Assembly (NCBI GenBank): GCA_900128565.1
Contig: LT635925.1
Span: 1 to 48,899, forward strand
Length of the DNA: 48,899 bases
Direction: 5' to 3'
From: Stramenopiles sp. TOSAG23-6
Taxonomy: Eukaryota
Positions 15,643 to 48,899 of the stretch are shown here, piece after piece. The position numbers and the translations under genes are program-made. The notes beneath the pieces were generated by a model. The model had not been told where the DNA came from, did not search any database, and saw only the letters and a program-made list of their open reading frames with translations. Each line of letters begins with the position of its first letter. Position 1 is the stretch's first letter.

Positions 15643-17281
15643 ATGTCAGCATTATCACCTAGTAAATGCAAGGCATGCTCAGGTAAACATGTTGCTCATG
15701 TTTGTAGCCGTTCAACAAAGTATCGGCAAGATAATGGTGAATATGCCGGGAAAAGGCTTGCAAATAAGCGTCGAATGAATTCTGTAGGTCATGACGTAGA
15801 TAATATTGATCAGAAAGGGATAAAACGTCCACGAAAAGCATGTATGTATCCACGTGATAATGGAAGAGGTTCGCGGAGGACTTTTTTAAAATTAGCAAAT
15901 AGTTCAAAAAAAACGCCGAAGGACACTGTAGCTGATCTTCGCTCTGAATTATTGTCGAGAACTGTTGTTTACAACCCAGAAACAAAAATGCATTGCCGTG
16001 AGTGGGATACAACCGATGTTGTAAAGGGTGTAATTTCGGCCCTTCAAAAAAATGGTACACTGACTAGTTCACAAGTTGCATCAATAATTGGTGCCCCTGA
16101 AGGACACGTATGTTTTCATCTTGAATTTCAATTTTTTTTCTACCAAATTTCGTACCTAACGAATTTCAAGTGCAATATATTTTCCTAAAATACATGTTCA
16201 AGTTGTTTTAGATATTTTAGTGACAACTCCTTTAGCAAGTGAAGTTTTGGTTGGTACACGTGAACAAGTAAAAAAGTATACTGAAAATTTATCAAGAAGA
16301 GAAATACGGCGTCGTTTTAAAATGTTAGTAAAAGGTAATCCTGGTAGTTTGGCAGCCTTGGATGATAGAAAGAGCAAAAAAAATGAATCTAAAGGAAAAG
16401 TAATTGAATCCAAAGGAAAAGTAATTGAATCTAAAGTAGAACAAGTTGAATCTAAAGTAGAACAAGTTGAATCTAAAGTAGAACAAGTTGAATCTAAAGA
16501 AAAAGAAATTCAAAACCTGGTAATCATTGAAAGTATAGATAAGAAGTCTTCGTCAGTTACAAGTAATACTTGCAATACAAGTGATACGAATGAAAAGACC
16601 ACTACTCTTACTTCTAAGCCTAATGAAAGTGATGTGAATGAAAAAGCTGTTCAAGAATGCTCTCATCCGAATAGTCAAAAATTAGAAAACGAAAATGTTG
16701 TAGTAAAGACAAATATTTCTCCAACCAAAGTTACAGATTTGGAGAAGAAGGAGGATGATATAGGGCATACTTCATCTGTACCTCCTTCATCAATACATAA
16801 TAAGCAACATAATACTATTACGGCTTCTACTGCTTCACCATCCAAAACAACTACGCCTTTAGTAGCACCACCAGCAACAACACAGACAACATCCCAGACA
16901 ACATCTCAAACAGCTTCATTACAAGAAATACCAGCAACAACAACAACAACAACAACCATGAAAATACTAACAAAAAATTTCACTCAGGATATAAAACCAA
17001 CTGTTACACAAGATGGCCTGACTGTGACGTATATTTATAGAGACGGAAATCCGCTTCCATCAAGCATTCCATTAGGTAATATTGCCGATGCTATTAGATT
17101 AGAACGATTGCTCGTTCTTCGTAGCTCATCAAGAATCAAAATGTATAAAGCTGAAATGAAGAAACCTGTGAAAGAACGAAAGGTTCAAGATTTGTTGAAG
17201 AGGTATATTAAAAGTCATAAAGAACTGAATAGAAATGATTTCTATTCAGCAATTGCAGAAACCTTATTATCAGAGGAGTGA
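15643..17281 (+). CDS. Hypothetical protein with CxxC-x3-HxxHxC knuckle and HTH-like segment; exons 15643-16107 and 16196-17281
   Basis: Two ORFs join in frame when 16108-16195 is removed, giving LTSSQVASIIGAPEGHVQVVLDILV. Confidence 0.7.
16108..16195 (+). other. Non-canonical intron-like element I1 (GT...AT, 88 nt, phase 0)
   Basis: GTATGT start, TACCTAAC at 16153-16160, ends AAAATACAT|GT; removal restores the frame. Confidence 0.75.
16385..16500 (+). repeat. 21-nt coding tandem repeat (ESKGKVI / ESKVEQV, about 5.5 copies)
   Basis: Visible in DNA and protein. Confidence 0.9.
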
Positions 17282-17339
17282 GTAAAACATATAAAGTGTG
17301 TAATATAGTATAGTATAGATTCAAATTTATTTTAAATCA

Positions 17340-19556
17340 TCATAAATCAACTATTTTGTAGCATGCTTCATCCTCTTCAGACTCTTCAGAAGAAGTAGCA
17401 AGGAAATTATTCAGATTTTCTATAGATTCGGGTGTAGCAATTTGTATATCTCTCGCAGTCTCTGTTATACTATCTTTGTCTTTTTCTGTCATATCTTTGT
17501 TACTTTTATCAGTCTCGATTTCATTTTTGTTGTCTGTTTGTGGCATAACGTCTGTATTCTTTGCAGAGAACGTAGTATTGTCACTATCCGTCGCAGTAGC
17601 TACTAATGTCTTGGTGGTAGTATTTTTTGTACTATCTTTTCCAAATAAAACAGACGGGCTTGTCAAAGTATCTACAACATATGATGATTTAGATTTTCGA
17701 GAAGAAGATGAAATATTTTTCTCACTTGATACGCTACCTCTGGTTGTACCTTTTTTAGGTGTCATCCTTGCGAGAGGCCCACGGGATTTTAACTTTCTTT
17801 CTAATGCTTGAATATGAGAATTTTTTTCGCGTAATTCTTTATTCAAAATTTGAACATTTTCTTGTAAAAATCGAATTTCCTCACGTACTTTAGCATTTTG
17901 TTGTAAAAGTTGTTGCAATCGTTTAGCTAAAGCTTTCTTTACACCATCTTTATCATTTTGAGAATGTACACCACCATTGTTATTACTTAATGGAGAATCA
18001 AAATCGCTAAAAAGTGTTCTTGCTTTTGCAGCTGCTGCAATTGCACGTGCTTTAATACTACTGGAGGTTTTTGCAGATTTTGCACTTGTTATTGATTGCG
18101 TCAAGTTTGAATTTTTTAACTGGTTATCTGGAGACTGGAATGATGGAGTTTTTTCTGTAGAATTTGAAGATTCAAAAGTGATAGGCGAAGATGAATTTTT
18201 TGATACGGGTACTGCCATAGTTTCCCTATGCACATTCGCTGTCGACGTTGATTGGACCACATGCTTATATGTAGACTCTAATTGTCCATATTTAGTATGT
18301 AATTTCTGTAATTCTTTTTTGAGTGTTTTAATCAATGCTACTTCTCTTTTGCCTTTAACAACAGCATCATCTTTAACATCTTGAATATCAATTTTTAATT
18401 TCGCCATTTGCTCCGTTGATTCATTTAATTGAACTTCAAGCTCTTCTGCTTTTAAGCTTGCATTTATTCTACGTTTTTCTATCATTTCACATTTATTTTT
18501 TAAGTTTTGAATTTCTTCAGTCAAGATTTTGTTTTTTTCACTCAGATGATTTTTATCTGTTTCTGAAATTTCTAAAGATTCCTTCAACTGTGTAAACATT
18601 TGTCTTTCCTTATTTAATGTTTCCTGTATACTACAAATTTCGTCATTTTTTAATTGTATCGAATTTTCTGCTTTAATTAACGCAATCTTTGCCAGACTAG
18701 TTTTTTTTTGTGTTTCTTTTTCTGTGGCTTCCAATGCTTTCAAATCAATACGCAATTTACTATTCTCGCCCATGGCCTCCATTAGTGCGTCATCAAGCTG
18801 ACTACGTTGATCAGATTCGTTCAGTAACTGTGTTCGTAAGTGGCTGAGTTCCTTCTCCATTTTAGTATTTACAGCAACATTATCCTGAAGTTTCTTAATT
18901 GAGGATTTTGAGGATTGGGATTTGGTAGCCTGTAATTGCGTCTTTAACTTATCAATTGTTTCAGTAGATGTTGATACTTGAAGTTTTAACTCTTCTACTT
19001 CACTCATGGTTTTCTGTAGGGTAGCATCAGATTGAGAACGACTTATTTGTAAAACGTCAATCTCATCGAGTAAGTCTTCATTATGAATCTCTAAAGTTTT
19101 TAATTTTGTTTTTAACTCTGTCTCGTTAAAATCTTCAATCTGTTTTAATAAAGCATTTTTTTCCTTGGTCGCGGCAACTTTAGTTACACACAGCTCACCT
19201 TGTAATTTTTTAATGTCAGCGCGCAGTGTTTCCAATTCTGCCTTTGTCTTTAAAGTCTCATCACTTACGCTACCATTATTCACTGCTTCTAACGCCTTTT
19301 TCTTGGCATCTGCAATCTGTTCACGCATTATACTTTTGATCTGCTGAACTTGCAATTTAAGTTGCTCGTTTTCATCGGCAAGATTTCGCATCTGACGCTT
19401 CCTGGCGTCGTTTTCCTGCTTAGAGATTGTCGTCTTTTTGTTTGCGGAATTGCCACGTTTCAACCATCCCTGTAACCCTGCTTTGATGTCGGAAACACGC
19501 TGTTGAGCACTTCCAGCTGTAGCAGGCGAATTCGTCTTTGAGGGGTTTGACGACAT
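17340..19556 (-). CDS. Long coiled-coil protein, CCDC186/GRIPAP1-like C-terminal segment
   Basis: Extended heptads; ALAKRLQQLLQQNAKVREEIRFLQENVQILNKELREKNSHIQ resembles that family from memory; ATG at 19556. Confidence 0.6.
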   Translation of the reverse strand: MSSNPSKTNSPATAGSAQQRVSDIKAGLQGWLKRGNSANKKTTISKQENDARKRQMRNLADENEQLKLQVQQIKSIMREQIADAKKKALEAVNNGSVSDETLKTKAELETLRADIKKLQGELCVTKVAATKEKNALLKQIEDFNETELKTKLKTLEIHNEDLLDEIDVLQISRSQSDATLQKTMSEVEELKLQVSTSTETIDKLKTQLQATKSQSSKSSIKKLQDNVAVNTKMEKELSHLRTQLLNESDQRSQLDDALMEAMGENSKLRIDLKALEATEKETQKKTSLAKIALIKAENSIQLKNDEICSIQETLNKERQMFTQLKESLEISETDKNHLSEKNKILTEEIQNLKNKCEMIEKRRINASLKAEELEVQLNESTEQMAKLKIDIQDVKDDAVVKGKREVALIKTLKKELQKLHTKYGQLESTYKHVVQSTSTANVHRETMAVPVSKNSSSPITFESSNSTEKTPSFQSPDNQLKNSNLTQSITSAKSAKTSSSIKARAIAAAAKARTLFSDFDSPLSNNNGGVHSQNDKDGVKKALAKRLQQLLQQNAKVREEIRFLQENVQILNKELREKNSHIQALERKLKSRGPLARMTPKKGTTRGSVSSEKNISSSSRKSKSSYVVDTLTSPSVLFGKDSTKNTTTKTLVATATDSDNTTFSAKNTDVMPQTDNKNEIETDKSNKDMTEKDKDSITETARDIQIATPESIENLNNFLATSSEESEEDEACYKIVDL

Positions 19557-19999
19557 TGAAACAATTGAAAATAAGCGCCAATCAAAAAAAGGTAAAATGT
19601 CGCGCAATAATATCAATAAAAATATTATATTGAATCCAATAATATGTGTGAATGTGAGAAAGAAAAACATCAAAACAATATCAATAATATTTTGATGATG
19701 ATTTGCAATTTTTTGACACTTTGCTGAACCTTTTCAAAACTTATATTTCGTGTTGTTCAGTGCTGCGTCACCATCTTGGGGGAATCGTCTGCCGATTATA
19801 AGGACTTAGAAGCTATAATGTCATGTGTAATGCTGCAGAATACATACATTAATCACAACGGTCGATAGCATGTGATACAACATACTAGATTTTTTCATCT
19901 GTTTGGAAAAAAATTCTAAAATATAACATAATTTATAAAATGATGAAAAATATCAAAACCAACAGAAAATAAATGTGGTCAGCACTACAACCGTATTTT

Positions 20000-20449
20000 C
20001 TATCGACGCAAAGTTTTACGAATCAGACAATATACATTAGAATCTAATTCAATATTAATAAGATGCCTCTGTTCGCCTTTAATACACATCAGCAAGCCAC
20101 CGAATGAAACATATGCAGCAACACGGTGTTCTTTCTCGTGCTCGTATTTGAAAACTTTACCGTACATTCCGTACTCATATTTATCCAAAAGCGTAGGTTT
20201 ACCAGATTGATCAAACTCACCCGAATCTGGCTTTCCGTCTAAAGATAATGTTCTCGCAAGCGCAAAACTAATCTTTTCACCTTCATAGATTGGATATGCG
20301 TCAGTATTAATGTCAATGACAAGGTCGGTTTCATAAGCAACACCTTTACACTGAATTCGGTCAACTTTGTCGAACTTTTTACCATCTGGATTCTTTACAC
20401 GAACATCAAAAAGATCCTCAAAGAGAATAGAACTAGATCTATCACTCAT
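20000..20449 (-). CDS. RPB8: RNA polymerases I/II/III subunit RPABC3
   Basis: LFEDLFDV...DGKKFDKVDRI, YEYGMYGKVFK, YVSFGGLLM. Confidence 0.96.
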   Translation of the reverse strand: MSDRSSSILFEDLFDVRVKNPDGKKFDKVDRIQCKGVAYETDLVIDINTDAYPIYEGEKISFALARTLSLDGKPDSGEFDQSGKPTLLDKYEYGMYGKVFKYEHEKEHRVAAYVSFGGLLMCIKGEQRHLINIELDSNVYCLIRKTLRR

Positions 20450-20747
20450 TATACAATTACTACTATCCAGTCGTTAGATATCTAATTGCTATCGCGAGAG
20501 AATTTCACAAGAAGTGCTTGAATATAGTTATGCGAGTCGTTGATTTGAGTAGAGAGAAGCCAGTTCACTATAAAAAAAACGGATGACGGAACAGGTTTGT
20601 TCTTTCGCGATTTGCTACCACGCTCTTCAGAGTCCTTCTTAAACCTGTGCAATTTGCAAAAGAAAAATATTATTCTGAAAATACGCGAAATATTTATACG
20701 ACAACCCAACTCAAACAAAGCTCCATACGAATCGAGTATCAATATCA

Positions 20748-22025
20748 ATGGGTAGGATGCTGAAATTTATGCCACTTAGGTCTTTAAAAATGCAGCTTTA
20801 TCGGATGCGTGGTCGTCCAATAAAATACTTTGGCAATTTCGTTCACGACGGTATAAAATCTTCCCATAGACAATTTACAAATGTTGTATTAACTGAGTCT
20901 TTTTCTTCAAATGAGTCTTCTACAGTAAGCGATTTAAATTTGGTTTCAGAATTTGATACGTACCAGCCTTCATTATTAGATGAGCTGCACCTCCGTGTGA
21001 AGAATAGGCCACTGAAACACATTATTCTTCCTGAAGGAAATGATAAACGAGTTCAAGAAGCAGCTTATGAAGCCGTCACTCAAGGTTTAGCAAAAGTCAC
21101 TCTGTTCGTTGAATCGCCTCAAGAAGCCGCTCTTATTCCGCATGTGAAAGGGGTAAATGTAATTGTCCCCAATGATCATTCGGATATGAAACGTTTAGCC
21201 TCTGAATTTTATGCTGAACGTCTGAAGAAAAAATCGAATATTCTTGTTAAAGATACAGTTGACCCTCATTACTTTGCTAATTTGTTGGTGAAGGACGGCC
21301 AAGCTGATGGTGTAGTTGCTGGTGCTCTCTTAACTACTGGAGATGTTGTCCGTTCCGCCATTCAATGTATTGGGCCAGCAACTGGTAACTCGGTGATTAG
21401 TAGCTTCTTTATAATAGAATTTCCAGAGAATCATCCGAGGGCAGGCGCAGTTCTATTTGCAGATTGCGGAATAAACGCCGAACCAACAGCTGAACAACTT
21501 GCAGAAATCACTTTACAAACGGCATCCAGTGCGAATCAATTATTATCATCTACAGCATTACCACCGCGTGTGTCTATGTTATCATTTTCAACACATGGAA
21601 GTTCAGCTCATAAAAATGCAAAAAAAACACGAAATGCTTACGAAAAAGTATTACTGAAAAGGACTGAATTAATTTCCTCATACGAAAGTAGTAATACACA
21701 AAATACTGGAAAAACTCCATTTGGTACAGTTAATGAATTAAAAGAATTAATTATTGATGGTGAGCTTCAGTTTGATGCTGCTGTTGTACCAGATATTGCA
21801 AAGAAAAAGGCTCCTCAATCAGCAATACAAGGAAATACAAATGTTTTTGTATTTCCTAATTTAGACGCAGGTAACATTGCATACAAAATGGCTGAGCGTT
21901 TTGCCGGAGCGAAAGCGATAGGCCCTATCTTACAAGGTTTAAAAAAACCTTCAAATGATCTTTCTAGAGGTTGTGATATTTCAGATATTATTCATTCTAT
22001 TGTTATCACATCCCTACAAAGTTAA
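20748..22025 (+). CDS. pta: Phosphate acetyltransferase with N-terminal targeting-like extension
   Basis: IILPEGND, FADCGIN, MLSFSTHGS, DGELQFDAA, FVFPNLDAGNIAYK, GPILQGL, NDLSRGC. Confidence 0.94.
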   Translation: MGRMLKFMPLRSLKMQLYRMRGRPIKYFGNFVHDGIKSSHRQFTNVVLTESFSSNESSTVSDLNLVSEFDTYQPSLLDELHLRVKNRPLKHIILPEGNDKRVQEAAYEAVTQGLAKVTLFVESPQEAALIPHVKGVNVIVPNDHSDMKRLASEFYAERLKKKSNILVKDTVDPHYFANLLVKDGQADGVVAGALLTTGDVVRSAIQCIGPATGNSVISSFFIIEFPENHPRAGAVLFADCGINAEPTAEQLAEITLQTASSANQLLSSTALPPRVSMLSFSTHGSSAHKNAKKTRNAYEKVLLKRTELISSYESSNTQNTGKTPFGTVNELKELIIDGELQFDAAVVPDIAKKKAPQSAIQGNTNVFVFPNLDAGNIAYKMAERFAGAKAIGPILQGLKKPSNDLSRGCDISDIIHSIVITSLQS

Positions 22026-22146
22026 AACACATGTAAATGACTTCAAAAAGAAAAAAAAGTAATAAAAAAAAGTTTTTTTTACTTTGTCTAATTTATGAGA
22101 GTAAAAACATATTTCAAATTGTAATGGTAAGTACTACATACTGTAG

Positions 22147-24741
22147 TTATTCATTTGGATTTTTTCCAATAAAAATTGGTCCAAGGACTAAGCATGTCGT
22201 CGTCATTGTAGTAATAATTACGTGTAATGCTGGACCAGCTGTATCCTTAAATGGGTCGCCAACGGTGTCGCCAGTCACGGATGCCATATGAGCATTGCTT
22301 CCTTTCCCACCATGAGCTCCAGCTTCAATATATTTTTTTGCATTATCCCAAGCACCACCACTATTATCTAAGAACATTGCCATCATAAGCCCAGTGAGGG
22401 TTTCAAACATCATCATTCCACACAAAACTTCAACACCTAAGTCGTATTGACCAGTATATTCTCCGATAAATCTAAATAGTAGACCAATACAAATTGGTCC
22501 ACCTAAAGCAAAACATGCAGGCTTAATCATTTTCTTCAATGCTTCACCTGTGACTATAGCAACACACGCTTGATAATTTGGCTTTTGTTCATATTGAAGA
22601 ATTCCCGGCATTTCGTCAAGTTGTCGTCTAACTTCTTCGACAACCTTTTTTGCCGTTTGACCCACTGCATCAAGTGATAAGCCTACAAAAAGAAATATAC
22701 TCATTATTCCGAGTAACCCACCTACTAAAACTTCAATTTTACCTATATTAACATCATAAAAAGGTCTCCCAATAAATTCACTCATTTCATCTAAAAAGGC
22801 ACGAAATAATACAAAACATGCAAGTGCACTTCCTCCAACAGCATATCCTTTCGTTGCCGCTTTAGTAATGTTTCCAACCGCATCAAGTTCATCTGTAATT
22901 GCGCGGACTGTCTCTGGTTGCCCAGACATTTCAACAATGCCTCCAGCATTATCAGCAATTGGACCAAAATTATTCATACTCAAAACAAAAACAGCAGTAC
23001 ACAAAGTTCCCATCGTAGCACACGCTGTCCCGTACAACCCTGCAGCAACAGTGTTTGGTAAACCACTATTTTTACCTAAGTAATACGATACTAAAATAGA
23101 GATACTAAGTACAATTGTAGGTACAAAAGTTGATTCCATCCCAACAGAGATTCCAGATATAACATTTGTACCATGTCCTGTTGTTGATGCAGCAGCTATT
23201 TTTTGTACAGGTCCATGCGTATAATCAGTGTAATACTGTGTGGATAGAAATAGACAAAATGAGGATAAAATTCCAACTAAACCACATAGAAAGTAGTTAT
23301 ACCATGCAGAAGGTGCAATGGGGTCACTTAATAAAGCATAACAAGAAATAGCATATGTACAGATCGCACATATAATAGATATAATATAAGCATTCTGCAT
23401 AATTTTTAGTGGACTACCACGTGACGTTGAATTAACACACATAATACCAACAATACTTACAACAAGGTCAGTTCCATGAATAACTACAGGGAAAAACACG
23501 AAATGTTCAGGATTTGTCACACCTGACTTTGCCGCAAGTTCACCACCAAGAATCATTGCGCCTATAATTTCCCCACTAATTGACTCAAACACATCCGCCA
23601 TACTACCAGCACAATCACCCACATTATCTCCCACTAAATCTGCAATGACAGCAGGATTGCGTGGGTCATCTTCGGGAATTCTGTTTTCTATTTTACCAAC
23701 CAAATCTGCGCCAACGTCAGCTGCTTTTGTGTATATTCCACCTCCCAACTGCATAAATAAACCTACAAATGATGCGCCAAAACTATACCCAGCGATAAAT
23801 AAAGGAATTTTTTTTGAGTCCACGCCACCAAAATATGAAAAATTTAAGTAGGCTGCAATGTATAAAAGTGAAACTCCAAGAATGCACATTCCTGCTGACA
23901 ATATACCAGATACTGCTCCACCACGGAATGCTAATACTAAAGCTTCACGAGTCAGGCCACATGTATTGTGAAAAAAAATATCAACAAAAAAAAATTGTTA
24001 GGTATGAAATTTTGTACAAAAAAATAAATTTGAAGTTAGGGTGAGGGTTGATAATGAAAGCGTACGTGATGCTGCGCTGGCTACTCTGACATTAGCACGT
24101 ACTGAAAACCATACTCCCACATACCCTGCCAATGCAGAGCAAAACGAACCCAATAAAAATGAAAAACTTGTAAATAAGGCTAACGACAGTTTATAATTCT
24201 CCAATTCAGGAGAAATAGCTGGCCTATTTAAATATAGTAGACATAATAAACATGATGTTATTAAAGAAGATATAAATACGGCATAATACTGGACCTTCAG
24301 GAATCCATCCGCGCCTTCTTTTATAGTCGATGCGATCTCTTGCATTTCTACCGTTCCGCAGTCCGCTTTTAATATGCTCTCTGAAAGGTGTATTGCAACA
24401 AAAAATGAACCAAGAACGATTAATAGTGTCATCATCATATATACACCACCTATTTCACTTCCTAGAAATGCTACAGCTAATATAGCGAGTACATTTAGAA
24501 CCATGACAAAGGTTACTAAATTTCCTACCCATTTTGGGACATCTTGTGATGAAAACCTCTGAGACGAAGAGACAACCCTGGGAACTCCAAGCGATTTAGC
24601 AAGTCCCATAGGAAGACCAAAACGTGAGGATATCCCTCTATTTTTTCGTTGCGAGTCATCATCACGTGGCGACGAGGGTATACCTGCTGAACCTCCTTCA
24701 AGACTAGTATATTGATGACCGCCTCTTCGTGTAGGTAACAT
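22147..24741 (-). CDS. Membrane H+-translocating pyrophosphatase, K+-independent (AVP2-like); exons 24741-24066 and 23960-22147
   Basis: GGGIYTKAADVGADLVGK, EDDPRNPAVIADLVGDNVGD, GNITK (Lys type), GDTVGDPFKDTAGP; the halves join as RVASAASRGLTREALVLAFRGG. Confidence 0.95.
23961..24065 (-). other. Non-canonical intron-like element I2 (GT...AT, 105 nt, phase 1)
   Basis: GTACGC start, TACCTAAC at 24004-23997, ends CACAATACAT|GT; contains an in-frame TAA, so it must be removed. Confidence 0.8.
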
Positions 24742-25005
24742 TCTCTACAATTAGATAACCTATAATTCCTATAATTTCTGGAAGCAACAACAACAACAAG
24801 CACCGAAGTCCTTTGAATTCACATTCAAAAATACACGAAATCCTAAGAAAAAATCGGAACTCACAATTTAATTGATTGGAGTCAAATTGTGACTGTCATA
24901 ATATTAAAGCTGCATTCGCATAAATTGTTCTTCTGCAGGTACTACTGTAACCAAATTCTAAAAGTTTTGCTTCATACTCTGCTAGGAAAACCATTCTAGA
25001 TAAGA

Positions 25006-27866
25006 ATGGCTGGATCAGTGTAAGTTTTGTTCATTTGTATTATTTTTCTACACAAACTTGGTACTTTATTGGGTACATTTTTAGATAATATAGTTATTCT
25101 CAATGGAGAGTTTATCTCTGTTGAAAACTTGTTTATTTTTTATTTTTTGCCTAGTTGTCCTTAGAACTATTACACATTACATTACGTAAAGCCTTTTAAT
25201 TTCATAAAGTTATACTTGACGTATCCATTTTTCACTGTAGTACTTGCGATTTTGCAATCCTTGCGGGTTCGGACAGCGACGTCGAAGAAAGAATTCCTCG
25301 GAAGTCCAAGTCACAGCGTAAACGAAATAAAAAAAATAAAATGTCAAACTCTTTACAAACAACGAGTACACATGTACAAGATACTACATCGGTTGAAGTA
25401 AGTCATAATCCGGAAGATGCTAGTATCATACGTCAAGTGTGTCGTGGAGGTTTCTCAAAAAAGGAAATCGTAAATGCCTTGCAAAAGCTTCGAGCTCTCG
25501 ACTTTGTGATTGATGCTCGAAACGTTTTACAATACCTCAAAGAGGCAGATTTAAAAGAAGTATCCGGAGAATTATATGATCCATGCACTTCTGATTATTT
25601 TGCAATGTATGGAAAGAAAACCCCTACCCCTACTCAAAATAATTCTCCTTTCTACCAAAATTCATTCACAAATATACACTTGCCAAGGTCGTCCACTCCA
25701 GTTTTTGGTGGCAAAAATCAAACTAAAAATACTTCGCCAACAACGTCAACCATAATTAATGTTGAATCTAAATCTATGAACAATGAAACCGTCATTGAGA
25801 ATCAAAAGCGAACTCTTGAAAAAGTGTCTGATCTCGAAAATTTAGAAGAAATTCTTGATGCGTTGTCCTCCTATTTTAAAACATTTCCAAGTATGTTTTC
25901 AAAATTGAATGTAAAATATTTTTCAAGTTCGAATTTATTTTTTTAAAAAATTTTTCGTAGTTAATTTTGTACCTAACAAAACCTAACGAAACCTAACAAA
26001 ACAGTTGAATGTAAAATATTGTTTCACAATACATGTATGTTTATTTTTTTCAATTTGGAATTTTTTTTTCGTACAAAATTTCGTACCTAACAAATATATA
26101 TATATATATATATACTTTTTCATAATACAAGTATTATTCCAGTATTTTTTGAAACTTCTGCCTTACAAAAAATACTGATGAATCTTTACACGAAATCATA
26201 CAAACCAAAACGAATTGACAAAAAACTAAAATTATTCTTTGAAAGACTTTTTTTTCAGAAATTGGAAAATCAGAATTTGAACGCAAGTGAAAAAGAAAGA
26301 AAAATATTTCCTCAAAATGTTGTTGTCTGTGTTATCCGTGATATTTTTAATGTAGTATCCAATTGGAAACATTCTGAGAATTCTGACTTACCACAATTAA
26401 GTGAGATTATTGAATGGATCTCAAGATGTATAAAAGAAAGTTGTGATATATTCAAAACTTCAACTAAAGCATTTTTAGTATGTACAGAAATGCGTAAGAA
26501 AATTGAGGAGACTCGAGAAAAAGCAGCAAAATTATTAACTGTACCATTGGGTATTACTAATACTTTGAATACAACTAAAACGATGTTTGCTCTGCGTGAT
26601 ATTCAGTATAATCTTGCGCGTTTGTATAAGCAAAAACAATGTATTTTTCAAATTCAAAATTCGTCAAGTGCGAAATTTGGTACCAATTTAATTTCAAATA
26701 CACCAAGTACTATGCTGACTGAATTGGTAGTAGACACCGCAACTGATGATCCCAAAACTGCATCACTTCAAAATGACTCTTTATTAACAGTTTTAAATGA
26801 AATGTCAAAAATAACGGATGAAGATTTCAAGATAAATGAAGAATATGAAAAAATACAATCTGAAATGATGAAAGCTCATGAAAAGAGTTGTACTGAAATA
26901 AATTGTAGAAAAGATGAAAAAATGAATCGAATAAAGACAATAAAAGAACAAAGAAGAAAATTATTGGATGAATTGGCAATTGTTGATGAAAGTCTCAGAA
27001 ATGAAGAAGAGGGGTATACAATGCTACTGAAAGAAAAGACAGATTTAGAAAGCAAACGTTTGGAGATTTTGAATTCAAAACTGGGACAATATGAAAAAAC
27101 TGTACAAATGGTGAAAACGAATAAAAAGTGTTTGGCAATGAAAAATCTTTTGATTTCTTTACGTACGAAATGTTCTGACAGTAGCCATATTTATCAAAAT
27201 AAATGTAGACAAACCTGTTTTGGATATGGAACGGATAAATATGAGGAAATGGTTCAAAAATCAAATCTTGAACATTATAATGCAGTGTTTGCGTATTTAA
27301 TGACAGAAATTAAATGTATTGATTACTTAAAGAATCGTATTAAAAACAGTACAACCGAGGAAAACTTTTGCAATAAAGAAATAAATTACTACCAGAATAT
27401 GGGAAGTATGAATAAAACCCTTCAAAATCTTATAGAAAAACGTACGAAATGTTGCCAAATTAAAAATGAAGATGTACAAGCTTCAGAAGCAATCTTGAGT
27501 TTGTGCCACGAAATATTTAAAGACGTTTGTTCATCAAGTAAAATATTGAAGAAAAAAAATAATGATAATGATATTCATAGTATTGATAATGATGAAATTG
27601 AAGCTGTACGTCGTCTAGTGATACCATTCAGACAACTTGGTATAGGATTGTCGAATGATTGGATACCTGGTGCAATAATTGAACCTATTTCTATATCTAA
27701 AGACTCATCAAATAATTTTGAAGACAATATTGAAGAAAAAAATCCAATATCGAACAAAATTATTGAGACGTCAAGCTCAGTGAAGAAACCACTACAAAAT
27801 GATTGTAATAATGACACGTCGCTTTCGAAGCATCTTACGTGGATTAGAACAACAAAATTAAAATAA
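25006..27866 (+). CDS. Hypothetical coiled-coil protein, possible UBA-like segment; exons 25006-25019, 25241-25890, 26131-27866
   Basis: All joins are in frame: MAGSVTCDFAILAGSDSD...KTFPSIIPVFFETSALQKILMNLY... Confidence 0.7.
25020..25240 (+). other. Canonical GT-AG intron (221 nt, phase 2)
   Basis: GTAAGT donor, CTTGAC branch candidate at 25215-25220, pyrimidine tract, CTGTAG acceptor; links ATG 25006 in frame to the downstream ORF. Confidence 0.75.
25891..26034 (+). other. Non-canonical intron-like element I4a (GT...AT, 144 nt)
   Basis: GTATGT start, three ACCTAAC copies at 25971, 25981 and 25991, ends CACAATACAT|GT. Confidence 0.7.
26035..26130 (+). other. Non-canonical intron-like element I4b (GT...AA, 96 nt), abutting I4a
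   Basis: GTATGT start, TACCTAAC at 26084-26091, (TA)n tract, ends CATAATACAA|GT. Confidence 0.7.
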
Positions 27867-28030
27867 ATATGTTGTTTTTCAAGTATCTTTCTTTGGGTTT
27901 GAGAGAACATCAAAATATAAATTAAAATTAATAAGGATTGAAAAATGTTGTTTCACGATTACTAATTAAAAAAGAATAAAAAGTTTATCTTGAATAAAAA
28001 TTGATATTTTTATAGAAATGACATTAAACC

Positions 28031-29071
28031 CTAACTGAGTGCCGTTTGTAATGCTTGTTGTCCTCGTTTCGCCATTACACTCACTTCTCCTTTTCGTGTT
28101 TTATCAATAAAACCAATTTTTTGCGTGATTGAAGAATCTGGAACATATTTCCATGCGTCACTATATATAGGTTTATGTTTATTATGATTATTTGTTTTTT
28201 TTGGCTTTGGAAGTTCCTCAATATTGTAATGATCAAATCGTAAAGAACTATTAACAAGACTCTCCCCGGGGGATAAAATGTCGAGTTTATCTTTTTGTGA
28301 TGGATGTTCTTTCATCATAGACTCGAAGTGGCCGTACGGTGTTGCTTCAATAGCACCACTTGCCCAAAGACGTGGGTCTAATACCAATCTTTGCCTGGAT
28401 TTTGCTATACTTACTTGTTTATTAGAAGTGGCAGTATCTAATGTTTCTTCCGCGAGTCGTTGAAGAACCCGGCGAGTTGGATTATTTAAATTATTTGTAT
28501 TTACTCTTGGAAACATAATTGGCGTTTGTGGTGCAAAACCTGAAGGCGTTTCGGAATCTAAAAACATACCCCCTGTAGCTCGATTTGATAACTTTAGAAA
28601 GTCAGTAAATTGTCGAAATTTCATTTCTTTTAATGTTTTTGAATCCATCGACTCTAAGGAATTGGCCACACCATTCTGTATTTGGGAAAACACTTCATCA
28701 TGCCAATCAAGATACAACTTTGATTTCTTTTGTTTGTCCGTTTGTTGTTGCATTGTTAGAAAACGATCAATCTCTTCAACGAATTTCCCTCCTTTTTTCA
28801 ATTTTACCATAGAATCAGCAAATTTCTTTTTTCCAATCTCTCTTTGGAGTTGTTTTTTTTCCTGGAAACGGTAGTCACTTTCTTTTTCTTTTAAAGATTG
28901 CATCTTGATCCATTGTGCGTATCGAAGTTTTGCTCGAACTAATTCTTTTTCTTTTGGAGTGAGCTTCTTTCTTGGCTTTAGAAGTTTGTTTGTTTGCGTT
29001 GGAGATGATAGACCATTGGTCAAACCAGCAAAAAGCTCTTTGTTATAGACTTTACAGGTATCGGAGGACAT
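28031..29071 (-). CDS. Hypothetical protein, FAM228-like (possibly ciliary)
   Basis: 346-aa ORF; FVEEIDRFL...KKSKLYLDWHDEVFSQIQ resembles FAM228 from memory. Confidence 0.5.
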   Translation of the reverse strand: MSSDTCKVYNKELFAGLTNGLSSPTQTNKLLKPRKKLTPKEKELVRAKLRYAQWIKMQSLKEKESDYRFQEKKQLQREIGKKKFADSMVKLKKGGKFVEEIDRFLTMQQQTDKQKKSKLYLDWHDEVFSQIQNGVANSLESMDSKTLKEMKFRQFTDFLKLSNRATGGMFLDSETPSGFAPQTPIMFPRVNTNNLNNPTRRVLQRLAEETLDTATSNKQVSIAKSRQRLVLDPRLWASGAIEATPYGHFESMMKEHPSQKDKLDILSPGESLVNSSLRFDHYNIEELPKPKKTNNHNKHKPIYSDAWKYVPDSSITQKIGFIDKTRKGEVSVMAKRGQQALQTALS

Positions 29072-29393
29072 ATTGAGTACTACGTACTATTAATACTAAC
29101 CTTATACCTACTATATATTCAAGAATATATCTTATCGCTATTTAGGACCGAAAAAAATGTAACTGCCGCCACGACTACGTAGTACTACGGAAGGACTTCT
29201 ACTATTATACGTTGTAGTGGCATTCAGTACGTATTAATATCTACTATTGTAGTAGTATTAGTCTTACTTTAACATTAGACAAAACTAGAAGAGCAACATT
29301 ACAATTGAGTTTGGTGGTACATCATAGGAATACAAAGGTGCCATAAATATAGAGTATACATTTATTACAAATATTACAAAAGATACCACAATA

Positions 29394-32300: not shown

Positions 32301-33450
32301 AAAAAAAAAGAAGAGGCAAGGACAAGAAGAACAGGAACAAAAAAATGATTTAGTGACAGCGACATTGGATGCAAATACGACACCATTTACAAACGTACTA
32401 ACTTCGCTTCAACCAAAATTAACTGTAGTACCAACACTACAAACTGAATTAATAAAAAGTAGAGAACGACAACAAAACATGCACTTAAGTCACATTAAGG
32501 AAACAAACCATCTAGGAATGATACCCGGTTCACCCAAAAAATATTTTGAAGTGAATGAAACTACATCTAATGACAACCTTAGTGACAAGAATCATGTTAT
32601 ACAAAATAATATTGATAGTCATACATACGCAAATGAAGCTTTTTTGAACAGTTTTTCGAGTACATTTAGTAAAAATCACAAAATGTCAACTGTTCCCGGC
32701 TCACCTATAAGAGGTGGGGGTTTATCAGCGAGTCGTCAAATTAGATCAAGTTTGCTTCATAATAATAACACAATGAATCGTCATTTATTTGATGTTACAC
32801 TAACCTCATCGTTATTGCATGATGATATACCGGTTGAAAATACTGTTTCATTGTCGGAGGGTAGGGTGGATAGTACCCAGCAAATTCGAAATTCATTAGG
32901 TGCAAAATCAGATTCATTATCGGATGGGCCAAGTGCCCCCGATCTGACTGAGACTCACCAAAGTAAAAACCTCGCAATATCTGGTACAGATATAGCTTCA
33001 GAAGTAAAAATTAAAAATGATTCACTCGCGCAGACTCATGAAGATTTTCGAACAGCTTTATCATTAAACCCTAACCCTACAGAAATAGCAGATACAACAG
33101 AAACAAACCATGGCACGAATACAAGTAAATCACGAAATCCTATAATAGCCACTGAAGCTGATTTATTAGAGTTATTACTCTCAGAAACACCATCATCACT
33201 ATCTACCATGCCCCAAAATACAACCAATATATTAATGCAGGTTTGTGCAAAAAGTGTTTTAGCTGATGAACATCTTGATGCAGTGTTACCATGGTTGAGG
33301 GAAGGTGCTTTAGTAGGTGTACATCTCGATGAGGACACTAAATCAACTGTGCTTTCAGCATTGCATCATCTCAGTTACTCAAGTAATCAAGACGGTATTC
33401 TTGCAGCTGAGCTAATACAACGAGAAGCTTTTCAAACAAACACGTTGTAA
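29394..33450 (+). CDS. Large HEAT-repeat protein, TORTIFOLIA1/SPIRAL2-like; frame broken at an N-containing low-quality stretch (about 32230-32260)
   Basis: QGAALCLSYLV, AWQ, EVNKVRQAAQDAL HEAT block, coiled coil, and C-terminal DLLELLL...HLDAVLPWLREG...VLSALHHL; the two ORFs overlap at the Ns. Confidence 0.55.
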
Positions 33451-33878
33451 AATTTTTAATGATTGTTATAAATATATAAACAAAAATGAATTTTGTTTTT
33501 GAATATATATATTGGTCAATATGCTCTTTCCAATGTAAAGTGTCATATGATGCTGATAATAATTGCCTTGGAGTCTGGTTATTATATTGTTGGTCATCAC
33601 AAATCAAAAATAGCAAAAAACATCTAGTTTAATTTTTTAAATTTTATTTCAAAATAGCAATCCTTGAATTCGCGATCTGATCAAGTCAGCGCCGTAAACA
33701 GAATATAATTTAAATTAGTAATTACCCTTTATAAATTTAGCCCGCAAATTGAGAAATTGAATTAATAATATGCGTGTGACTGATCTGACTTCTGATCATC
33801 GATGATGCATGTGAACAATACGAATAGTACTCGTGAGTAGAGCTATTTAAGTAGACTGGTATCAAATGAAATAAGATT

Positions 33879-36800
33879 ATGCATAGTTCGATAACATCAA
33901 TGAAAGCTCATTCTCTCTTGGGTATTCCTGATGAAGAAGAATACACTATTGTCCAAACATCAGAGGAGAACGTTGCAAAAGTTCCCCAACCAGAAACATC
34001 TCGTCAACATACACTGCTACGCCGACACGACACGCCGCCACTCATTAAACTAGCAAACATTTCTGACCCCAATGGATTTACTGCAGTAATTCATGATCCA
34101 CTAGATAATCCTACAACATTCAATAGATCTCTGAGCTATACATCATCGTATACTCTTCCAACAGCACAAATTTCATCGGTAGAATTTTCAGAATTCGAAG
34201 GATACATTGCAGAGATTGAAAAGCTTCATTATAAGTTAGTTGAAAACCACAAAACGAATGGTGGCACGATTGTTGAAGAATCAGCATCAGAAGAAAAAAT
34301 ACGTCAACTTTTACGAGATGTAGAAAACGTTGTACCTAAATTATTTTTCAGCAAACAATTTGCCTTTTCCGATGCATCTACTTTTAAAACAGTGACAGAG
34401 TCGCATGTGAGAGAAAATAGCAACCTTTCAAACTTAGGTGCGATGAATTCTAATCGTAACTATGATAAAGGTGGACAGGTACAAGATGAAAATCTGTTTA
34501 ATGAAAACAATCAGCACAAAGAATGTATCCAGAAACTTTCGCAATATTTAGAATTTGTCGAGTTTGTCATGCTGACGATAGTTTCTTCTAGGTCTCAGTC
34601 ATTTTTTGGTGCTCTCGAAGGTCTACAACTTTTTAAATTACAAATATCTTCTACATGTTATAAAATTAGATCTTTACGTGGACTCTTGCGGAGACTTAAA
34701 GGTGCCTTAGTTACAGGTTCATTGAAAATTATTCAACTTCGTCGACGTCGAGCTAATGTTTGTTTTCATATCAAATTCTGTACCTATTTTGTTTTGTGGT
34801 TTTGTGGTTTTGTGCCAAATTCTGTACCTAACAAATTTCAAACTAAAACATATTTTTCAATTACATGTGAAAAAAATCCAAGAAAAACTTAATTTTGTGT
34901 GTGGTGCAATGCAGACTCAGGAGTTAGTACAATTATTACTAGAAAGTGAAAATTATAGTGGTGCCCTAGATGTCATTGATGAAGTAAGAAATACTTTAAA
35001 AAGAGAAATTTGCGGTTTACATGCCTTGCAATTTCTTGAAAATAAGTTAACTCAATTTGTCAATTTAACGTCTAATACAATGACAAGTCAGTTTCTACAT
35101 TTGGCAATGCATCTTGGTTCAAATAGCAGCGATAATACAAATATTGAGGATGAGTCATCTACAGGTATTTTGAACAATGACAAAAATAATATAAATACAA
35201 GAATTGCAAAAATGTCCACTTCCAAAGATAGAGCTCGTTTTTTCCGATTACTTCAAGGTCTCCTTCAAGTAGGGAAATTACGTACAGTTTTGCGAGAATA
35301 TCGAAATCGTGTTGCAGAAATGGCTACTTCTGTTGTAAAAACCGCCGTACAAGCTGCATTAGGGACCCATAATAGCACAGTTACTATGAATGAAAAGGAC
35401 TCTCTGCAATCATCTCCGAATTCATCCAACTTAAGTACAAAAAATACTACAGAAAAACGTCCATCTATCAGTGTTGTCCGCCAACTACAAATGTTGGACG
35501 AACATTCATTTTTAGAACTTTTCGATATTGTTCGTGAACAACTTGGAATAGTCATTATTCGTGCTGTTGCTGTACATGAAATATTACAGAATTGTCTTGA
35601 AAAATGTCAAAATGACGTCGAAAGACAAATTTCAGAAAAAAATATAAATAAACCCAATAATAATCTCCATGAGAAGAGTAATGTCGATATGAATAGAAAT
35701 AATAGTAATACTAAAACGAGTGAAATTTTCCAAGTAAAACTAAAAGATACAAAAGATACAAAAGATACAAAGGAAACAAAACCAAAATTGAATGAAAGTG
35801 TCACTGACATTTCGACTTCTCAGTTAATCACAAAAATCACAAATTCTGGAAATATTGTTAATCCTAAAATTTTAAAATTTCGTGTAGATAAAAAAACATC
35901 ACTGCGTGAAAGTCGGGAATCTCTAATACATTTTTGGGTATTAGCTCAACGGCATATCGGCCGAATGCTCGAAGTACGAGCTGAGCTTCACAAATCTTCT
36001 GCATTAACACAGATGAATCAACTATCGCTGAAGTGCACTTCTTTTATTCATCAATATGCTGTTCTTTGTGGGAGTGATGGAGCAGTACTGCTTAATGTAT
36101 TAAAGTCTCAATTACAAGATCAATTTGAAATGATGCACATGACACATATACAACATATGATGCATATTCTTGCTACTGAAAGTTGGGAATCTTACCAAGT
36201 GTCAAAATTGTTACAAAAATTGTTAGACTTTGTCATTGAAATTTGTAATGAAAAAAAATTGGAAATGGAAGATTCAACGAATAAATTGTACAATCTTACA
36301 AATACTCAAAATACACAAAGAATAACACTTATTGAAATGATAGAATATGTTGAACACTTTGAAGTATTTAGTACAAAAACAACTGTATTACCTACGACAT
36401 ATAGTAGTACAAAACAACACGAAAAGAAGAATCGCACAATACCAAAATTATCAAAATTATTTGCTAAATTTCATGGACAAAAACAGAAGATGTGTTCCTT
36501 AAAAAGCATTGACTATTGTGTACCAAAAGCTACAATATATGTCGTATATATTTTAACTACTTGTATTCAAACTTGTCGTCAATGTCCCCATTTATTATCA
36601 CAAGTAGTACAAAAAATTGTACTAACTATTCGGAAATATAATTTCCGTTCATCTCAACTTATTTTAGGTGGTAAAAGTGTCGAGTCACGAGACTCGCCGA
36701 TAAAAAAAGTGACTGCGAGGCATTTATCGTTGGTTGCACGAAGTCTCTCATTTTTGGTCGTTTTCGTGTCGGAAATTAAAAAATATTTAGGTATTACATT

Positions 36801-37290
36801 TAGTTCAGTTGAGGATAAAAAAAGTAATGATGCATTGCTGTCTGAAATATCAGGTGTTATATATGAAATGGAAACTCATAGAAGAAATATATTTAAAAAA
36901 TTAGTTCACATTACTGAACAGCTCTGTACAAGCTCCTGTCAAAGTGCTGTTGATGTAGCCACATCTGACAGTGTTGTTCCAATGGTAGTGAGTCCTTTTA
37001 TGTCAAATCTTACGAGAGGATTAACTACATTATATCGTGTATTACAGCATATACTTACTGTAGAAGATGTGTTGTCTATATTTACAGATGTGGTAACAAT
37101 GATGAATAATGTAGTTCCAAAATCCTATTCTTCGATAAAAGTTGAAAATATTTCAGATCAACAAAAAAAACAGATATTATTTGATATTGGACATTTAGTA
37201 TCTACATTGAAAAAAGTTCGTGGCCTCAGAGATCGTGGTAAAACAATTGATAGACACTTTAGAGACAGGTTTGTTCTCTGTATTATATAA
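33879..37290 (+). CDS. VPS54: GARP complex subunit Vps54; exons 33879-34757 and 34867-37290
   Basis: KLSQYLEFVE...RSQSFFGAL, RRRRANVKKIQEKL...QTQELVQLLLESENYSGALDVI, YNFRSSQLILGG, KKVTARHLSLVARSL. Confidence 0.88.
34758..34866 (+). other. Non-canonical intron-like element I3 (GT...AT, 109 nt, phase 0)
   Basis: GTTTGT start, TACCTAAC at 34825-34832, ends CAATTACAT|GT; no AG inside the element; removal restores the Vps54 frame. Confidence 0.82.
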
Positions 37291-37360
37291 TTAAATAAAG
37301 TTTGTGGTGAACTATTTATTAATCTAATCGATAGACTCACAAAACACAATAACAAAACAA

Positions 37361-40867: not shown

Positions 40868-41130
40868 TCTAAATCATATATAACCTAAATTAGTAAATTT
40901 CCTTTTTCTTTTTATCGGAGATTATTGGATTCAAAAAAAAAAATGTTTGAAAAATAAAAAAGAGTGCAGAAAAAAAAAATCGTATCTACTATTGACATAA
41001 CTATGCAATGGGTGTCGCGCTCACACAAATTCTCTACAGGTGCGTCTTCAAAACTGAAGAATCATCCCCCATAATATTGTATATTAATATTATCCATAAC
41101 CGCCATAACCCTAAGTCTTACCCTTAAGTA

Positions 41131-42315: not shown

Positions 42316-42408
42316 AAAAATAAAAAAGTGAAACAAAAGATATAAAGGGAATATAGTTTAAATCTATGAAGTATTTTATAAAAACAGAATCTCGAGTCTT
42401 ATATTTTA

Positions 42409-43104: not shown

Positions 43105-43384
43105 TGTTACGTTTTTTACTTATCAAGTAGAGAATACAAATACGCTTTGTTCTCAAGATTATGGACGGTATATATTACCAGTCGGTACAGGAACTCGTCT
43201 CTCGCACTGAATATTTTTTAAACCCTAACCCTAGTACCTAGTTATTTGAACGTTGAAATCGTCTAAAAAATCAAATTCACGCGGGTGTAGCTATTTGTAT
43301 GAGTAGACGAATGCGTCAATATTGTTAAATAAAGTAAAGAGAATACATGGTAATAAGGTTTTAAAGAGATGAATTTATTTATTT

Positions 43385-44272: not shown

Positions 44273-44613
44273 ATTCAACTACTGTTGATATCAATAATAA
44301 TACGTATTCAATATAATATTAAGCTAGACCTAATGAGTGTTTGTAGATATTATGCGGTACTCCCACCATGTAATTCTGATGGTACCGGTAGTATCGACTT
44401 TCATTCAGTAAGTCAGGTATATCGGTACATGGCCATTGGCCAGAGAATGCATTGCGAATCAATTTCTGATTGGCCAAGATGTTGATGTGTGTGGACATCA
44501 CCAACACTGGCATTACTTATACCATTAGTGTTTTGCCTTTGCGTCCTAGCATACTGGTACCACCATGTTATTATCTTTATGGTAACTAAAATATTTGACA
44601 CCAACAGACCGAA

Positions 44614-45228
44614 ATGATATTTTACATTTCGTTTCTTATGATTGTATTTTTGTTGCAGAGTATCTGTTGCGCTACAGTTGCATCAACTAGAGCCTATGTC
44701 AATTGGGACGATAGGTATACTGTCTTAGACCTTGTGAAAATCGACGGCCGTGCTTTGAGGTTCGCTTCCCCAAAGTTAAAGAGAGACCAAGATATTGTAG
44801 TAGCGGCTGTATATCAAAGTAACGAAGCATTTTACTACGCAGCACCTGAAATGCGGAATAATCGAAGAGTCGTATTGAGCGCTGTTCATAAAAACGGTAA
44901 AATTCTAAAAGATGTTTCTTCTTCTTTGAAGGAAGACCGAGAAATTGTATTTGCTTCACTTTCAAATTATGGTATGGCACTCAAGGAAGTATCTAAAACA
45001 TTACAGGAAGATTACGATATTGTACTAGTAGCTGTCAAACAAGATGGAAATGCATTACAATATGCTGCAAAGTCTTTGAAAAATAACTATTCAATTGTTA
45101 TGGCTGCAGTAATCAGTGATGGTAACGCACTGTTTCATGCATCCTCTACTTTACAAAAGAATGATAAAATTCGGTCGGCCGCTTATAATCAACTATGGAT
45201 AAGAAGTGTGAATCGTTGGAACCTATAA
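44614..45228 (+). CDS. DUF4116-like repeat protein with signal peptide
   Basis: Repeats of about 25 aa (D.EIVLxAVxxxGxALxYAxxxL); hydrophobic N-terminus. Confidence 0.75.
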   Translation: MIFYISFLMIVFLLQSICCATVASTRAYVNWDDRYTVLDLVKIDGRALRFASPKLKRDQDIVVAAVYQSNEAFYYAAPEMRNNRRVVLSAVHKNGKILKDVSSSLKEDREIVFASLSNYGMALKEVSKTLQEDYDIVLVAVKQDGNALQYAAKSLKNNYSIVMAAVISDGNALFHASSTLQKNDKIRSAAYNQLWIRSVNRWNL

Positions 45229-45306
45229 AAGAGGAGCATATAATAAAAAATTACAATCCATAAATACGAAAGACTATTTTATTTTGTCAACCCTTTTTTT
45301 GCCTCT

Positions 45307-47691: not shown

Positions 47692-48131
47692 ACTGAAATA
47701 TTGTCTTCTCTTGGATCACTGAGGAAGATTTAAGTTTGTACTATAAATTTTTAAAAACTTTCTTTTGTTTCAAAGCAAGGATTCATGTTTACACTTAACG
47801 GTACCCATGTAAAATTACAACTCCGTATATTTCAAAAATGATAAAGGTATGCATAGAGTACACATTGAAATTGGATCGTCTGTGATTGTTAAACAAATGT
47901 GTTTATGATCCCGTGTATGGATTTTAGATTCATTCAGAAAAGTAACTGTCGATCCATATGGATGACGATGACGTCATCTTTTTTCTGGGACATTTTCGTT
48001 TAATTTTCAAAATTGTTTTTTTGTCTAAAATATAACGAAAGTCGAATTCTCCATCCATAATATAGACTTCCGTCAATTCTTTTTTTCTTCCCGAGGATCA
48101 TTCTGAAAGAGTGACCAAATATTAATAATTC

Positions 48132-48811
48132 ATGGCGGACCCCATTGATATTGCAAATAAGTCAACTCTTGAGTTAGACAATATGATTGAAGCTCAGCAG
48201 AATCAGATAAAGCATGACATAGCCCAAGCGCAAGAATTTATTGGTGAGTTGCAACCCATTGAAATCTTGACTGAAGTTTACAAAGCCAACGTCCCTTTCC
48301 ATTCAAAGATTCATGCTATCCAAAAGATATATTCGAATATTCGGTGTGCTAGAGCGGATGGCAACTGTTTTTACCGAGCTCTTGCATTCGCTTGGTTTGA
48401 ACAGCTTTTACCGTTTGCTAAAACAAAAGAAGGGAAAGAAAGAGCTGTTGTTGTTCAGGCAAGCTTTCTTTCGTCAACTTCTGCTGAAAACCCATTGTCT
48501 TCTACAACCAGTGCAGACAAAACAAGTATAGAAAATAATGATTCTTCGTATGCAAAATCTGATGCTAGTGTAGATGAAAATTCAAAAAAGCACAAAAATG
48601 GTAAAATAGATGCAACCGAAGAGAACGACGTTAACATTTATTGCGTCGCTTTAGATTATTTTTGTACCAGTGTTGAGAGATGTAGTAAAGTGGGTTACAA
48701 AAAATACCTGGTGGAAGATTTTCTTGAAGTATGCATTGAATTACTTCTGGAAATGTCAGCTCCTGAATTCACTGTTTCTGACCTCACCAAAAGATTTCAA
48801 GATCAAAGTGT
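48132..48811 (+). CDS. Otubain (peptidase C65 deubiquitinase), first exon; gene continues off the right edge
   Basis: ATG at 48132; IRCARADGNCFYRALAF catalytic motif; GYKKYLVEDF...LTKRFQDQS. Not in the ORF track because it has no stop in the window. Confidence 0.88.
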
Positions 48812-48899
48812 GTATGTTTTATTCTTTTTCAAATCCGAATTTGTTTTCGTACGAAATTTTGTACCTAACGATTTTTTTTTGAAATATTTTTCCAAAATA
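48812..48899 (+). other. Intron-like element I5 of the same family, truncated by the window end
   Basis: GTATGT start, GTACGAAATTTTGTACCTAAC, ends ...TCCAAAATA at the edge. Confidence 0.75.

Follow-up and report, generated by a model that had tools for sequence, protein, structure and literature searches.

Can a family of introns dispense with the AG at its 3' end and still leave its host genes intact? Few signals in eukaryotic gene expression are as constant as the 3' AG, and the question is raised here by contig LT635925.1 of Stramenopiles sp. TOSAG23-6 (GenBank assembly GCA_900128565.1), of which positions 1 to 48,899 of the forward strand (hereafter, the window) were analyzed. A first-pass annotation, made from the letters and their open reading frames (ORFs), had described in this window six related AT-rich inserts that interrupt five unrelated genes and are all oriented with transcription; all six were recovered in place and in the sense orientation. 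They are probably genuine introns and members of a single introner-like family, propagated and lineage specific, in a marine stramenopile with few introns; a spliceosome of the major type most likely removes them.

The inserts (i1 to i6, in genes A to E; Table 1) share the layout that had been proposed for them, with 5' ends that fit GTWYGYTT and 3' ends that fit AWTACAW followed by an exonic GT. All six begin with GT, in the form of GTATGT in four copies and of GTTTGT and GTACGC in one copy each. At the 3' end, visible in five copies, the sequence is AATACAT in three and AATACAA and ATTACAT in one each, so that the terminal triplet is CAT four times and CAA once, and GT comes next in every case (chance P of ~5e-7). 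Each of the six also carries the branch-like box TACCTAAC, which has a CTRAY-type core and was assigned as the branch site from the sequence alone. The spacing claimed for the putative branch A, 36, 37, 38, 40, and 35 nucleotides (nt) from the intron end in the five complete copies, was borne out; the 38 nt of i3 are counted from the third of its tandem ACCTAAC units, and its complete TACCTAAC box lies 58 nt from the end. Those tandem units, three of 10 nt each (25971-26002) and each with an ACCTAAC, provide i3 with three candidate branch sites. The inserts have a GC content of 17 to 27% and are very poor in G (8%). The two internal AGs that had been pointed out are present at 16169-70 (i1, +11 from the branch A) and 26003-4 (i3, +8). 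Because the intron and the second exon both begin with GT, shifting the cut by +1 or +2 (TA..TG or AT..GT termini) leaves the mRNA unchanged; neither of these registers ends in AG.

Within the window, TACCTAAC occurs 6 times versus 0.99 occurrences expected, each time in the same direction as the host ORF, and none of 100 shuffles reached 6. A profile built from the six copies matches those six alone at E values below 1e-12 (next match, E of 3e-4), and two composite family patterns find 2 and 3 matches in the window versus 0.00 expected.

The 3' boundary is defined first by the reading frame. Retention of the inserts brings early stops or frameshifts, two of their lengths (88 and 109) not being multiples of 3, and is excluded as a functional outcome. 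Excision from GT to CAT or CAA leaves a single ORF without interruption in each of the four genes whose inserts are complete, as the first-pass annotation had asserted, a result that a uniform rule would be expected to give by frame alone in ~1 case in 81. However, frame restoration is not decisive by itself and is weaker evidence than first claimed, because genes A, C, and D each permit some in-frame GT-AG solution.

The H+-pyrophosphatase gene provides the firmest evidence. Its intron, i2, has no AG anywhere inside, and the proposed GT..AT junction aligns without gaps to 38 of 39 homologues, with a gap of 1 residue in the other. Use of the AG at 23943, the sole AG-based alternative, would remove 6 residues that include a conserved acidic-Ala-Leu motif. 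The 18 nt that follow the proposed end are exon-like, with 61% GC versus 25% in the intron. In gene D, the Vps54_N profile scores 18.7 bits (profile positions 115-194) with the proposed exon start and 15.4 bits (positions 131-194) with a start after the AG at 34914; the 16 residues lost in the latter case match positions 115-130 and are worth 3.3 bits, a difference that weakly favors the putative non-AG boundary of i5. These comparisons show that keeping the genes intact takes precise removal from GT to CAT or CAA (or the same cut shifted by 1 or 2 nt) and thus an AG-less 3' boundary, a need that is supported most firmly for the pyrophosphatase gene; the predicted non-AG boundary is well supported for i2 by itself and for the other introns through the uniform rule.

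The only database protein nearly identical to the pyrophosphatase exon 2 (P0001) bears a source label beginning with GSMAST32, which hints that the source lineage is a MAST-3-like marine stramenopile; the next best matches, from diverse protists, show at most 66% identity. P0001 represents a predicted gene model for the same pyrophosphatase; the model continues ~17 residues into i2 before jumping to a false junction and has several other forced internal deletions relative to the open frame. These errors suggest that annotation of this genome was misled by its unusual introns.

The likeness of the copies is not confined to the three signal boxes. Pairwise similarity exceeds that of shuffled sequences in 12 of 15 pairs for the donor-to-branch segment, most clearly in a block that immediately precedes the branch box, and in 5 of 15 pairs for the branch-to-end segment; the similarity stops exactly at the proposed 3' end. 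Likeness of this extent points to an introner-like family and not to shared splice signals alone. Introns i3 and i4 stand head to tail with no exon between them, and either can be removed first with the other left intact. The upstream exons end in CAC, CAC, CAA, AAT, and TGT at the five independent sites, and the 3' junctions read CAT/GT or CAA/GT (the slash marks the junction); since each copy recreates a CAN/GT junction, tandem insertion would be natural. Together, the likeness beyond the boxes, the head-to-tail pair, and the GT after five 3' ends argue for a propagated, introner-like family. Direct repeats at the boundaries consist of GT in all copies, ATGT (4 nt) in i5, and CAAGTAT (7 nt) around the i3-i4 pair. 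Internal direct repeats are also present: 9 nt twice in i1 (16123-16169); 19 nt twice at 95% identity in i3 (25905-26023), in addition to its three 10-nt units; and 26 nt twice at 81% identity in i5 (34761-34830), including a second, degenerate branch-like box. These introns seem to be growing through internal duplication.

Described introners are similar short, sense-oriented introns that occur in unrelated genes with their own splice signals, are flanked by short direct repeats, and restore the ORF upon loss of the element plus one repeat (PMC12130899 and PMC7789003). The same traits are seen here, in six copies that are alike beyond the splice signals and are spread over five unrelated genes. 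The described families (PMC12130899, PMC7789003) differ in using canonical ends, whereas the ends here are AT or AA, and families with unfamiliar splice sites have been discarded by curators unless supported by transcripts (PMC12130899). A further difference is that the copies in the window show no terminal inverted repeats, no clear target site duplication beyond GT, and no near-identical young members; nor was presence/absence polymorphism seen in this one window.

How might such introns be removed? We infer that they leave at the RNA level through a spliceosome, which would choose the 3' site by a motif and a distance rather than by AG. In the proposed sequence of events, the yeast-like GTATGT would be recognized as the 5' site, the branch would form at the CTAAC core of TACCTAAC, and the exons would be ligated 35 to 40 nt downstream, after CAT (once CAA). 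This triplet would be equivalent to YAG with the last G replaced, YA(T/A), inside the conserved AWTACAW and always with GT next, and would be positioned by the conserved TACAW/GT together with the constant spacing of 35 to 40 nt. Yeast-type major introns carry GTATGT, TACTAAC, and YAG. Like these, the introns described here are few and short, have rigid extended signals with a GTATGT donor, a CTAAC branch core, C-A at positions -3 and -2, and a T-rich tract before the 3' end, and keep a branch-to-end distance within the range tolerated in yeast. They differ in the last base, which is T or A; in the box TACCTAAC, with its extra C; in the AWTACAW and exonic GT that mark the 3' end; and in sharing sequence outside the signals. 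Among the hallmarks of U2-type introns, GT in a U1/U6-compatible 5' consensus and a CTRAY-type branch core are present, and the 3' AG is absent.

Several results weigh against the proposal of an AG-less, spliceosomal family. To our knowledge, there are very few precedents for the major spliceosome using 3' ends without G. In-frame, stop-free GT-AG solutions do exist for genes A, C, and D, and the zone from +12 to +40 past the branch has no AG in any of the five complete introns (P of ~0.02), a hint that the machinery would still use an AG in this zone and that AGs are avoided there for that reason. Homologue support for a junction is limited to i2: a search with exon 2 of gene A against 1.84 billion representatives gave five matches, none near the junction; no Vps54 homologue of gene D passed E of 1e-10, a cutoff that was too strict; and PDB searches for support of the Vps54 junction gave nothing usable. 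No contig from four RNA runs joins the exons across i1 to i4. Among short transcript-derived protein fragments, none spans the pyrophosphatase junction, the sole match there being of an unrelated level (70% identity over 27% of the query). The family pattern that includes the 3' part has 0 matches in metagenome, prokaryote-genome, and viral contigs, and the copies studied number six, all in one 49-kb window.

The RNA data come from eight seawater runs that matched small shares of the window, four of which were examined over positions 15500-32229 (i1 to i4). These four likewise show no contig that bridges i1 to i4 unspliced; with neither spliced nor unspliced bridging contigs, they neither confirm nor refute splicing. 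In two polyA runs, the intron bodies have no cover, which counts as a hole and not as evidence. In two runs that were not polyA selected, from an independent seawater study, the intron-bearing bins reach summed depths of 40 to 282, most neighboring bins being below 5, and chimeric contig "joints" link i1 with i3 or i4; this combination indicates that related family copies are common in that RNA library. In one RNA-library contig, both ends of i3 are matched and 75 letters between them are replaced by 23 others, which suggests a shorter relative or allele of i3 without the expansion of the tandem units. In metagenome contigs, a junction probe (two 14-nt exon anchors with a gap of 0 to 30 nt) had 0 matches. 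A pattern restricted to donor and branch matched one viral contig and three contigs of prokaryotic metagenome-assembled genomes; none of these has the 3' part of the family, and they were rejected as chance matches. One of them (L002, 1968-2024, prokaryotic), which ends in a canonical-looking TTTTGCAG, lies antisense in a 462-amino-acid ORF within a bacterial-style gene row and serves as a warning for pattern scans.

The same segments could be excised by a minor (U12-like) or other second spliceosome that tolerates non-AG 3' ends, including GT-AT, an alternative that we consider improbable. The branch box of U12 introns is TCCTTAAC, located ~10 to 26 nt from the 3' end, versus TACCTAAC at 35 to 40 nt here. 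The donor GTATGTTT agrees with the U12 donor consensus RTATCCTT at 6 of 8 positions, and the branch box agrees with its U12 counterpart equally well, but the donor has GT rather than CC at +5/+6; the first-pass remark that U12-type donors are absent here was correct. GT-AT introns have been documented as U12-type and spliceable, with seven such introns listed, and in U12 introns the position of the 3' site depends largely on how far it lies from a rigid branch box (Sheth et al. 2006, PMC1557818). Minor introns are also present in some stramenopiles (PMC10639083). However, GT-AT ends are a rare exception among U12-type introns (PMC1557818), whereas 6 of 6 introns here belong to the one family, which also has a different consensus and spacing. 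All introns in the window are of this type, and minor introns normally form a tiny minority. No match to U11, U12, U4atac, or U6atac was found in the window, which covers only 49 kb.

We give little credence to ordinary GT-AG (or GC-AG) splicing through other nearby donors or downstream AGs, in which TACAW/GT would be no more than a relic of the family within or next to the intron. It can draw on the AG-free region between branch and end, which resembles a classical AG exclusion zone, and on in-frame, stop-free solutions at 16112 (the second GT) to 16202 in gene A, 25891 to 26142 or 25895 to 26131 in gene C, and 34758 to 34914 in gene D. These solutions, however, cannot be derived from a single rule. 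In i1 (+43), i4 (+41), and i5 (+51), the reading frame would be broken by use of the first AG that lies 12 nt or more past the branch. In i1, the AG at +11 runs into a stop and those at +52, +61, and +76 are out of frame as well; in i4, the AG one base past the end (26130-26131) would break the frame; and in i5, the in-frame AG at 34914 costs 16 residues. Consistent use of the second GT would create a TAA in gene D and is inapplicable to i2. The solutions either bypass a perfect GTATGT donor or rely on AGs that lie 52 nt downstream of the branch in gene C (26142) or 83 nt in gene D (34914), and in the pyrophosphatase the sole AG solution makes its 6-residue deletion where 38 of 39 homologues align ungapped. 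The arrest of inter-copy similarity precisely at the proposed 3' end also speaks against them.

There is likewise only a slim chance that the spliceosome is not involved, i.e., that a mobile element is excised from RNA or DNA by its own or another cellular mechanism, which has been proposed for the hairpin-forming non-canonical introns of Amoebophrya and euglenids, or that the inserts are lost by DNA elimination. The family-like copies, the tandem pair without an intervening exon, the short direct repeats at the boundaries, and the non-AG end would all fit such a mechanism. Against it stand the lack of terminal inverted repeats, of an inverted pair at the ends, and of a stable fold (z-scores of -1.75 to +0.81 across all five complete introns), while the strong GTATGT and the CTAAC are exactly what a spliceosome needs. 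The copies are, moreover, present in the DNA of a single-cell-type assembly. Rfam has no match at the introns or elsewhere in the window. Pairing of the intron ends was considered and rejected, as the ends could form no more than 3 to 4 bp and no compensating changes accompany the variant ends of i2, i4, and i5 (including the variant donor of i2). Translational bypass was also rejected, with take-off and landing codons that agree in i1 alone, as was the idea that the inserts are translated with a different genetic code, since two of them have lengths (88 and 109 nt) that are not divisible by 3.

The non-canonical introns of Amoebophrya (PMC7789003) and the nonconventional introns of euglenids are non-GT-AG and form repeated families, with variable termini, inverted repeats of 8 to 20 nt that form hairpins, and direct repeats of 3 to 5 nt. 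The inserts resemble both groups in being a repeated non-GT-AG family that defeats standard gene finders; they differ in the conserved 5' GT and branch box and in the lack of a hairpin, as neither complementary ends nor a stable stem was found. In the animal Fritillaria borealis, where both intron ends deviate, the change to non-GT/AG introns has been linked to U2AF duplications (bioRxiv 10.1101/2025.08.15.670264); here, the last base alone deviates and the 5' end is textbook.

It is very unlikely that the same segments are cut two bases upstream and behave like AT-AC introns with A-N...A-C termini. With the cut shifted by -2, the excised pieces begin and end as AC..AC, AC..AC, AA..AC (i3 and i4 as one unit), and AT..AC, the proteins of genes A, C, and D do not change, and all five visible 3' ends become TAC. 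But the second intron base would then vary (C, C, A, T, T), i6 would begin with G, and the conserved GTATGT would occupy +3 to +8, unlike in any known 5' site; moreover, the junction residue of the pyrophosphatase would change from Arg (21 of the 39 homologues have Arg or Lys) to Cys (present in a single homologue). We see next to no prospect that the inserts are never removed and mark pseudogenes or assembly or amplification artifacts: a draft-quality assembly with Ns and a frame break at 32230-32257 and the lack of spliced RNA in the four runs would allow it, but in the five genes the inserts are flanked on either side by long, unbroken ORFs with conserved domains, the six copies are all in the sense orientation with lengths that fit the frame rule, and the copies are mutually diverged and have relatives in independent RNA-library contigs.

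The AG-less introns resemble yeast introns in donor and branch, introners in their multiplication, and the U12, Fritillaria, and Amoebophrya introns in tolerating non-AG ends. The full defining set of the yeast-type, introner, U12, Fritillaria, or Amoebophrya class is in no case present. In line with the first-pass annotation, which knew of no such consensus, full-text literature searches (supplements not covered) yielded no description of it. Nor does it appear in the excerpts of the MAST genome papers, where introns come up only in the methods of PMC5778133 and go unmentioned in PMC12614181 and PMC8163842. The family may represent a new form of non-canonical intron; a ruler mechanism at the spliceosome is unproven.

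A bolder version, possible but rather doubtful, is that every spliceosomal intron in this MAST-3-like lineage belongs to this class, the terminal 3' G having been abandoned in favor of ligation after CA(T/A) in TACAW/GT at a fixed 35 to 40 nt from the branch, and that the family spread by reverse splicing or transposition into CAN/GT sites. If so, both the head-to-tail pair and the under-calling of genes by standard gene finders in such genomes would be accounted for.

The few genomes that break the AG rule (Fritillaria, Amoebophrya, euglenids) have revealed much about the flexibility of the spliceosome. Should RNA data confirm the junctions, this organism would have a splicing machinery with an unusual way of choosing the downstream cut site. 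A free-living, abundant marine protist with textbook donor and branch and only the last G replaced would then be a clean natural experiment, with a bearing on how the site of the second step is found and on how intron families spread. Until annotation includes this rule, gene counts, "pseudogene" calls, and protein sets of such genomes may be systematically wrong. MAST-3 assemblies have few predicted genes, and "advanced pseudogenization" of dynein heavy chain genes has been reported in one of them (PMC5778133); speculatively, if unrecognized non-AG introns are common, these gene and pseudogene calls may merit a recheck.

Table 1. Inserts of the AG-less family and their host genes in the window
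Feature	Positions	Strand	Remarks
Intron i1, 88 nt, GT..AT, gene A	16108..16195	+	Branch-like box 16153-16160
Intron i2, 105 nt, GT..AT, H+-pyrophosphatase gene (B)	23961..24065	-	Box 23997-24004; firmest case
Intron i3, 144 nt, GT..AT, gene C, adjoins i4	25891..26034	+	Box 25970-25977 and two further ACCTAAC units
Intron i4, 96 nt, GT..AA, gene C	26035..26130	+	Box 26084-26091
Intron i5, 109 nt, GT..AT, Vps54-like gene D	34758..34866	+	Box 34825-34832
Intron i6, otubain-like gene E, cut by window edge, 3' end unseen	48812..48899	+	Box 48862-48869
Host gene A, function unknown	15523..17281	+	ORFs 15523-16107 and 16196-17281 united by i1 removal
Host gene B, H+-translocating pyrophosphatase	22147..24744	-	PF03030 relatives
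Host gene C, function unknown	25200..27866	+	Two ORFs united by removal of i3 and i4
Host gene D, Vps54-like	33870..37290	+	PF07928, weak PF10475
Host gene E, first exon, otubain-like	48129..48811	+	PF10275

The window (48.9 kb, GC content of ~35%) is crowded with long ORFs on both strands. Their Pfam matches represent eukaryotic and metabolic functions, with domains that are usually covered in full within one ORF: aconitase of the B type, a cNMP-binding protein kinase, Rpb8, a prefoldin subunit, a DnaJ/CSL zinc-finger protein, a nucleoside transporter, phosphate acetyltransferase, a SpoU methylase, RNase H1, Vps54, and otubain. Because the long ORFs are packed and hold whole Pfam domains, the genome appears to be compact and intron poor. 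Among the ~27 ORF-defined genes of the window, no kind of interruption other than the insert family was seen, and the window contains no tRNA genes. The ORFs at 29328-32249 and 32212-33450 are probably one gene, split by draft-quality sequence rather than by an intron: four single Ns and a frame change lie at 32230-32257 within an A-rich low-complexity stretch. The eukaryotic contig carries a bacterial-type aconitase B (Aconitase_B_N and Aconitase_2_N; 11779-14628, plus strand) as well as a phosphate acetyltransferase (20679-22025, plus strand), which may be old bacterial transfers or metabolic genes shared among protists. A small protein encoded at 44599-45228 (plus strand) consists of three DUF4116 repeats (E of 3.5e-43).

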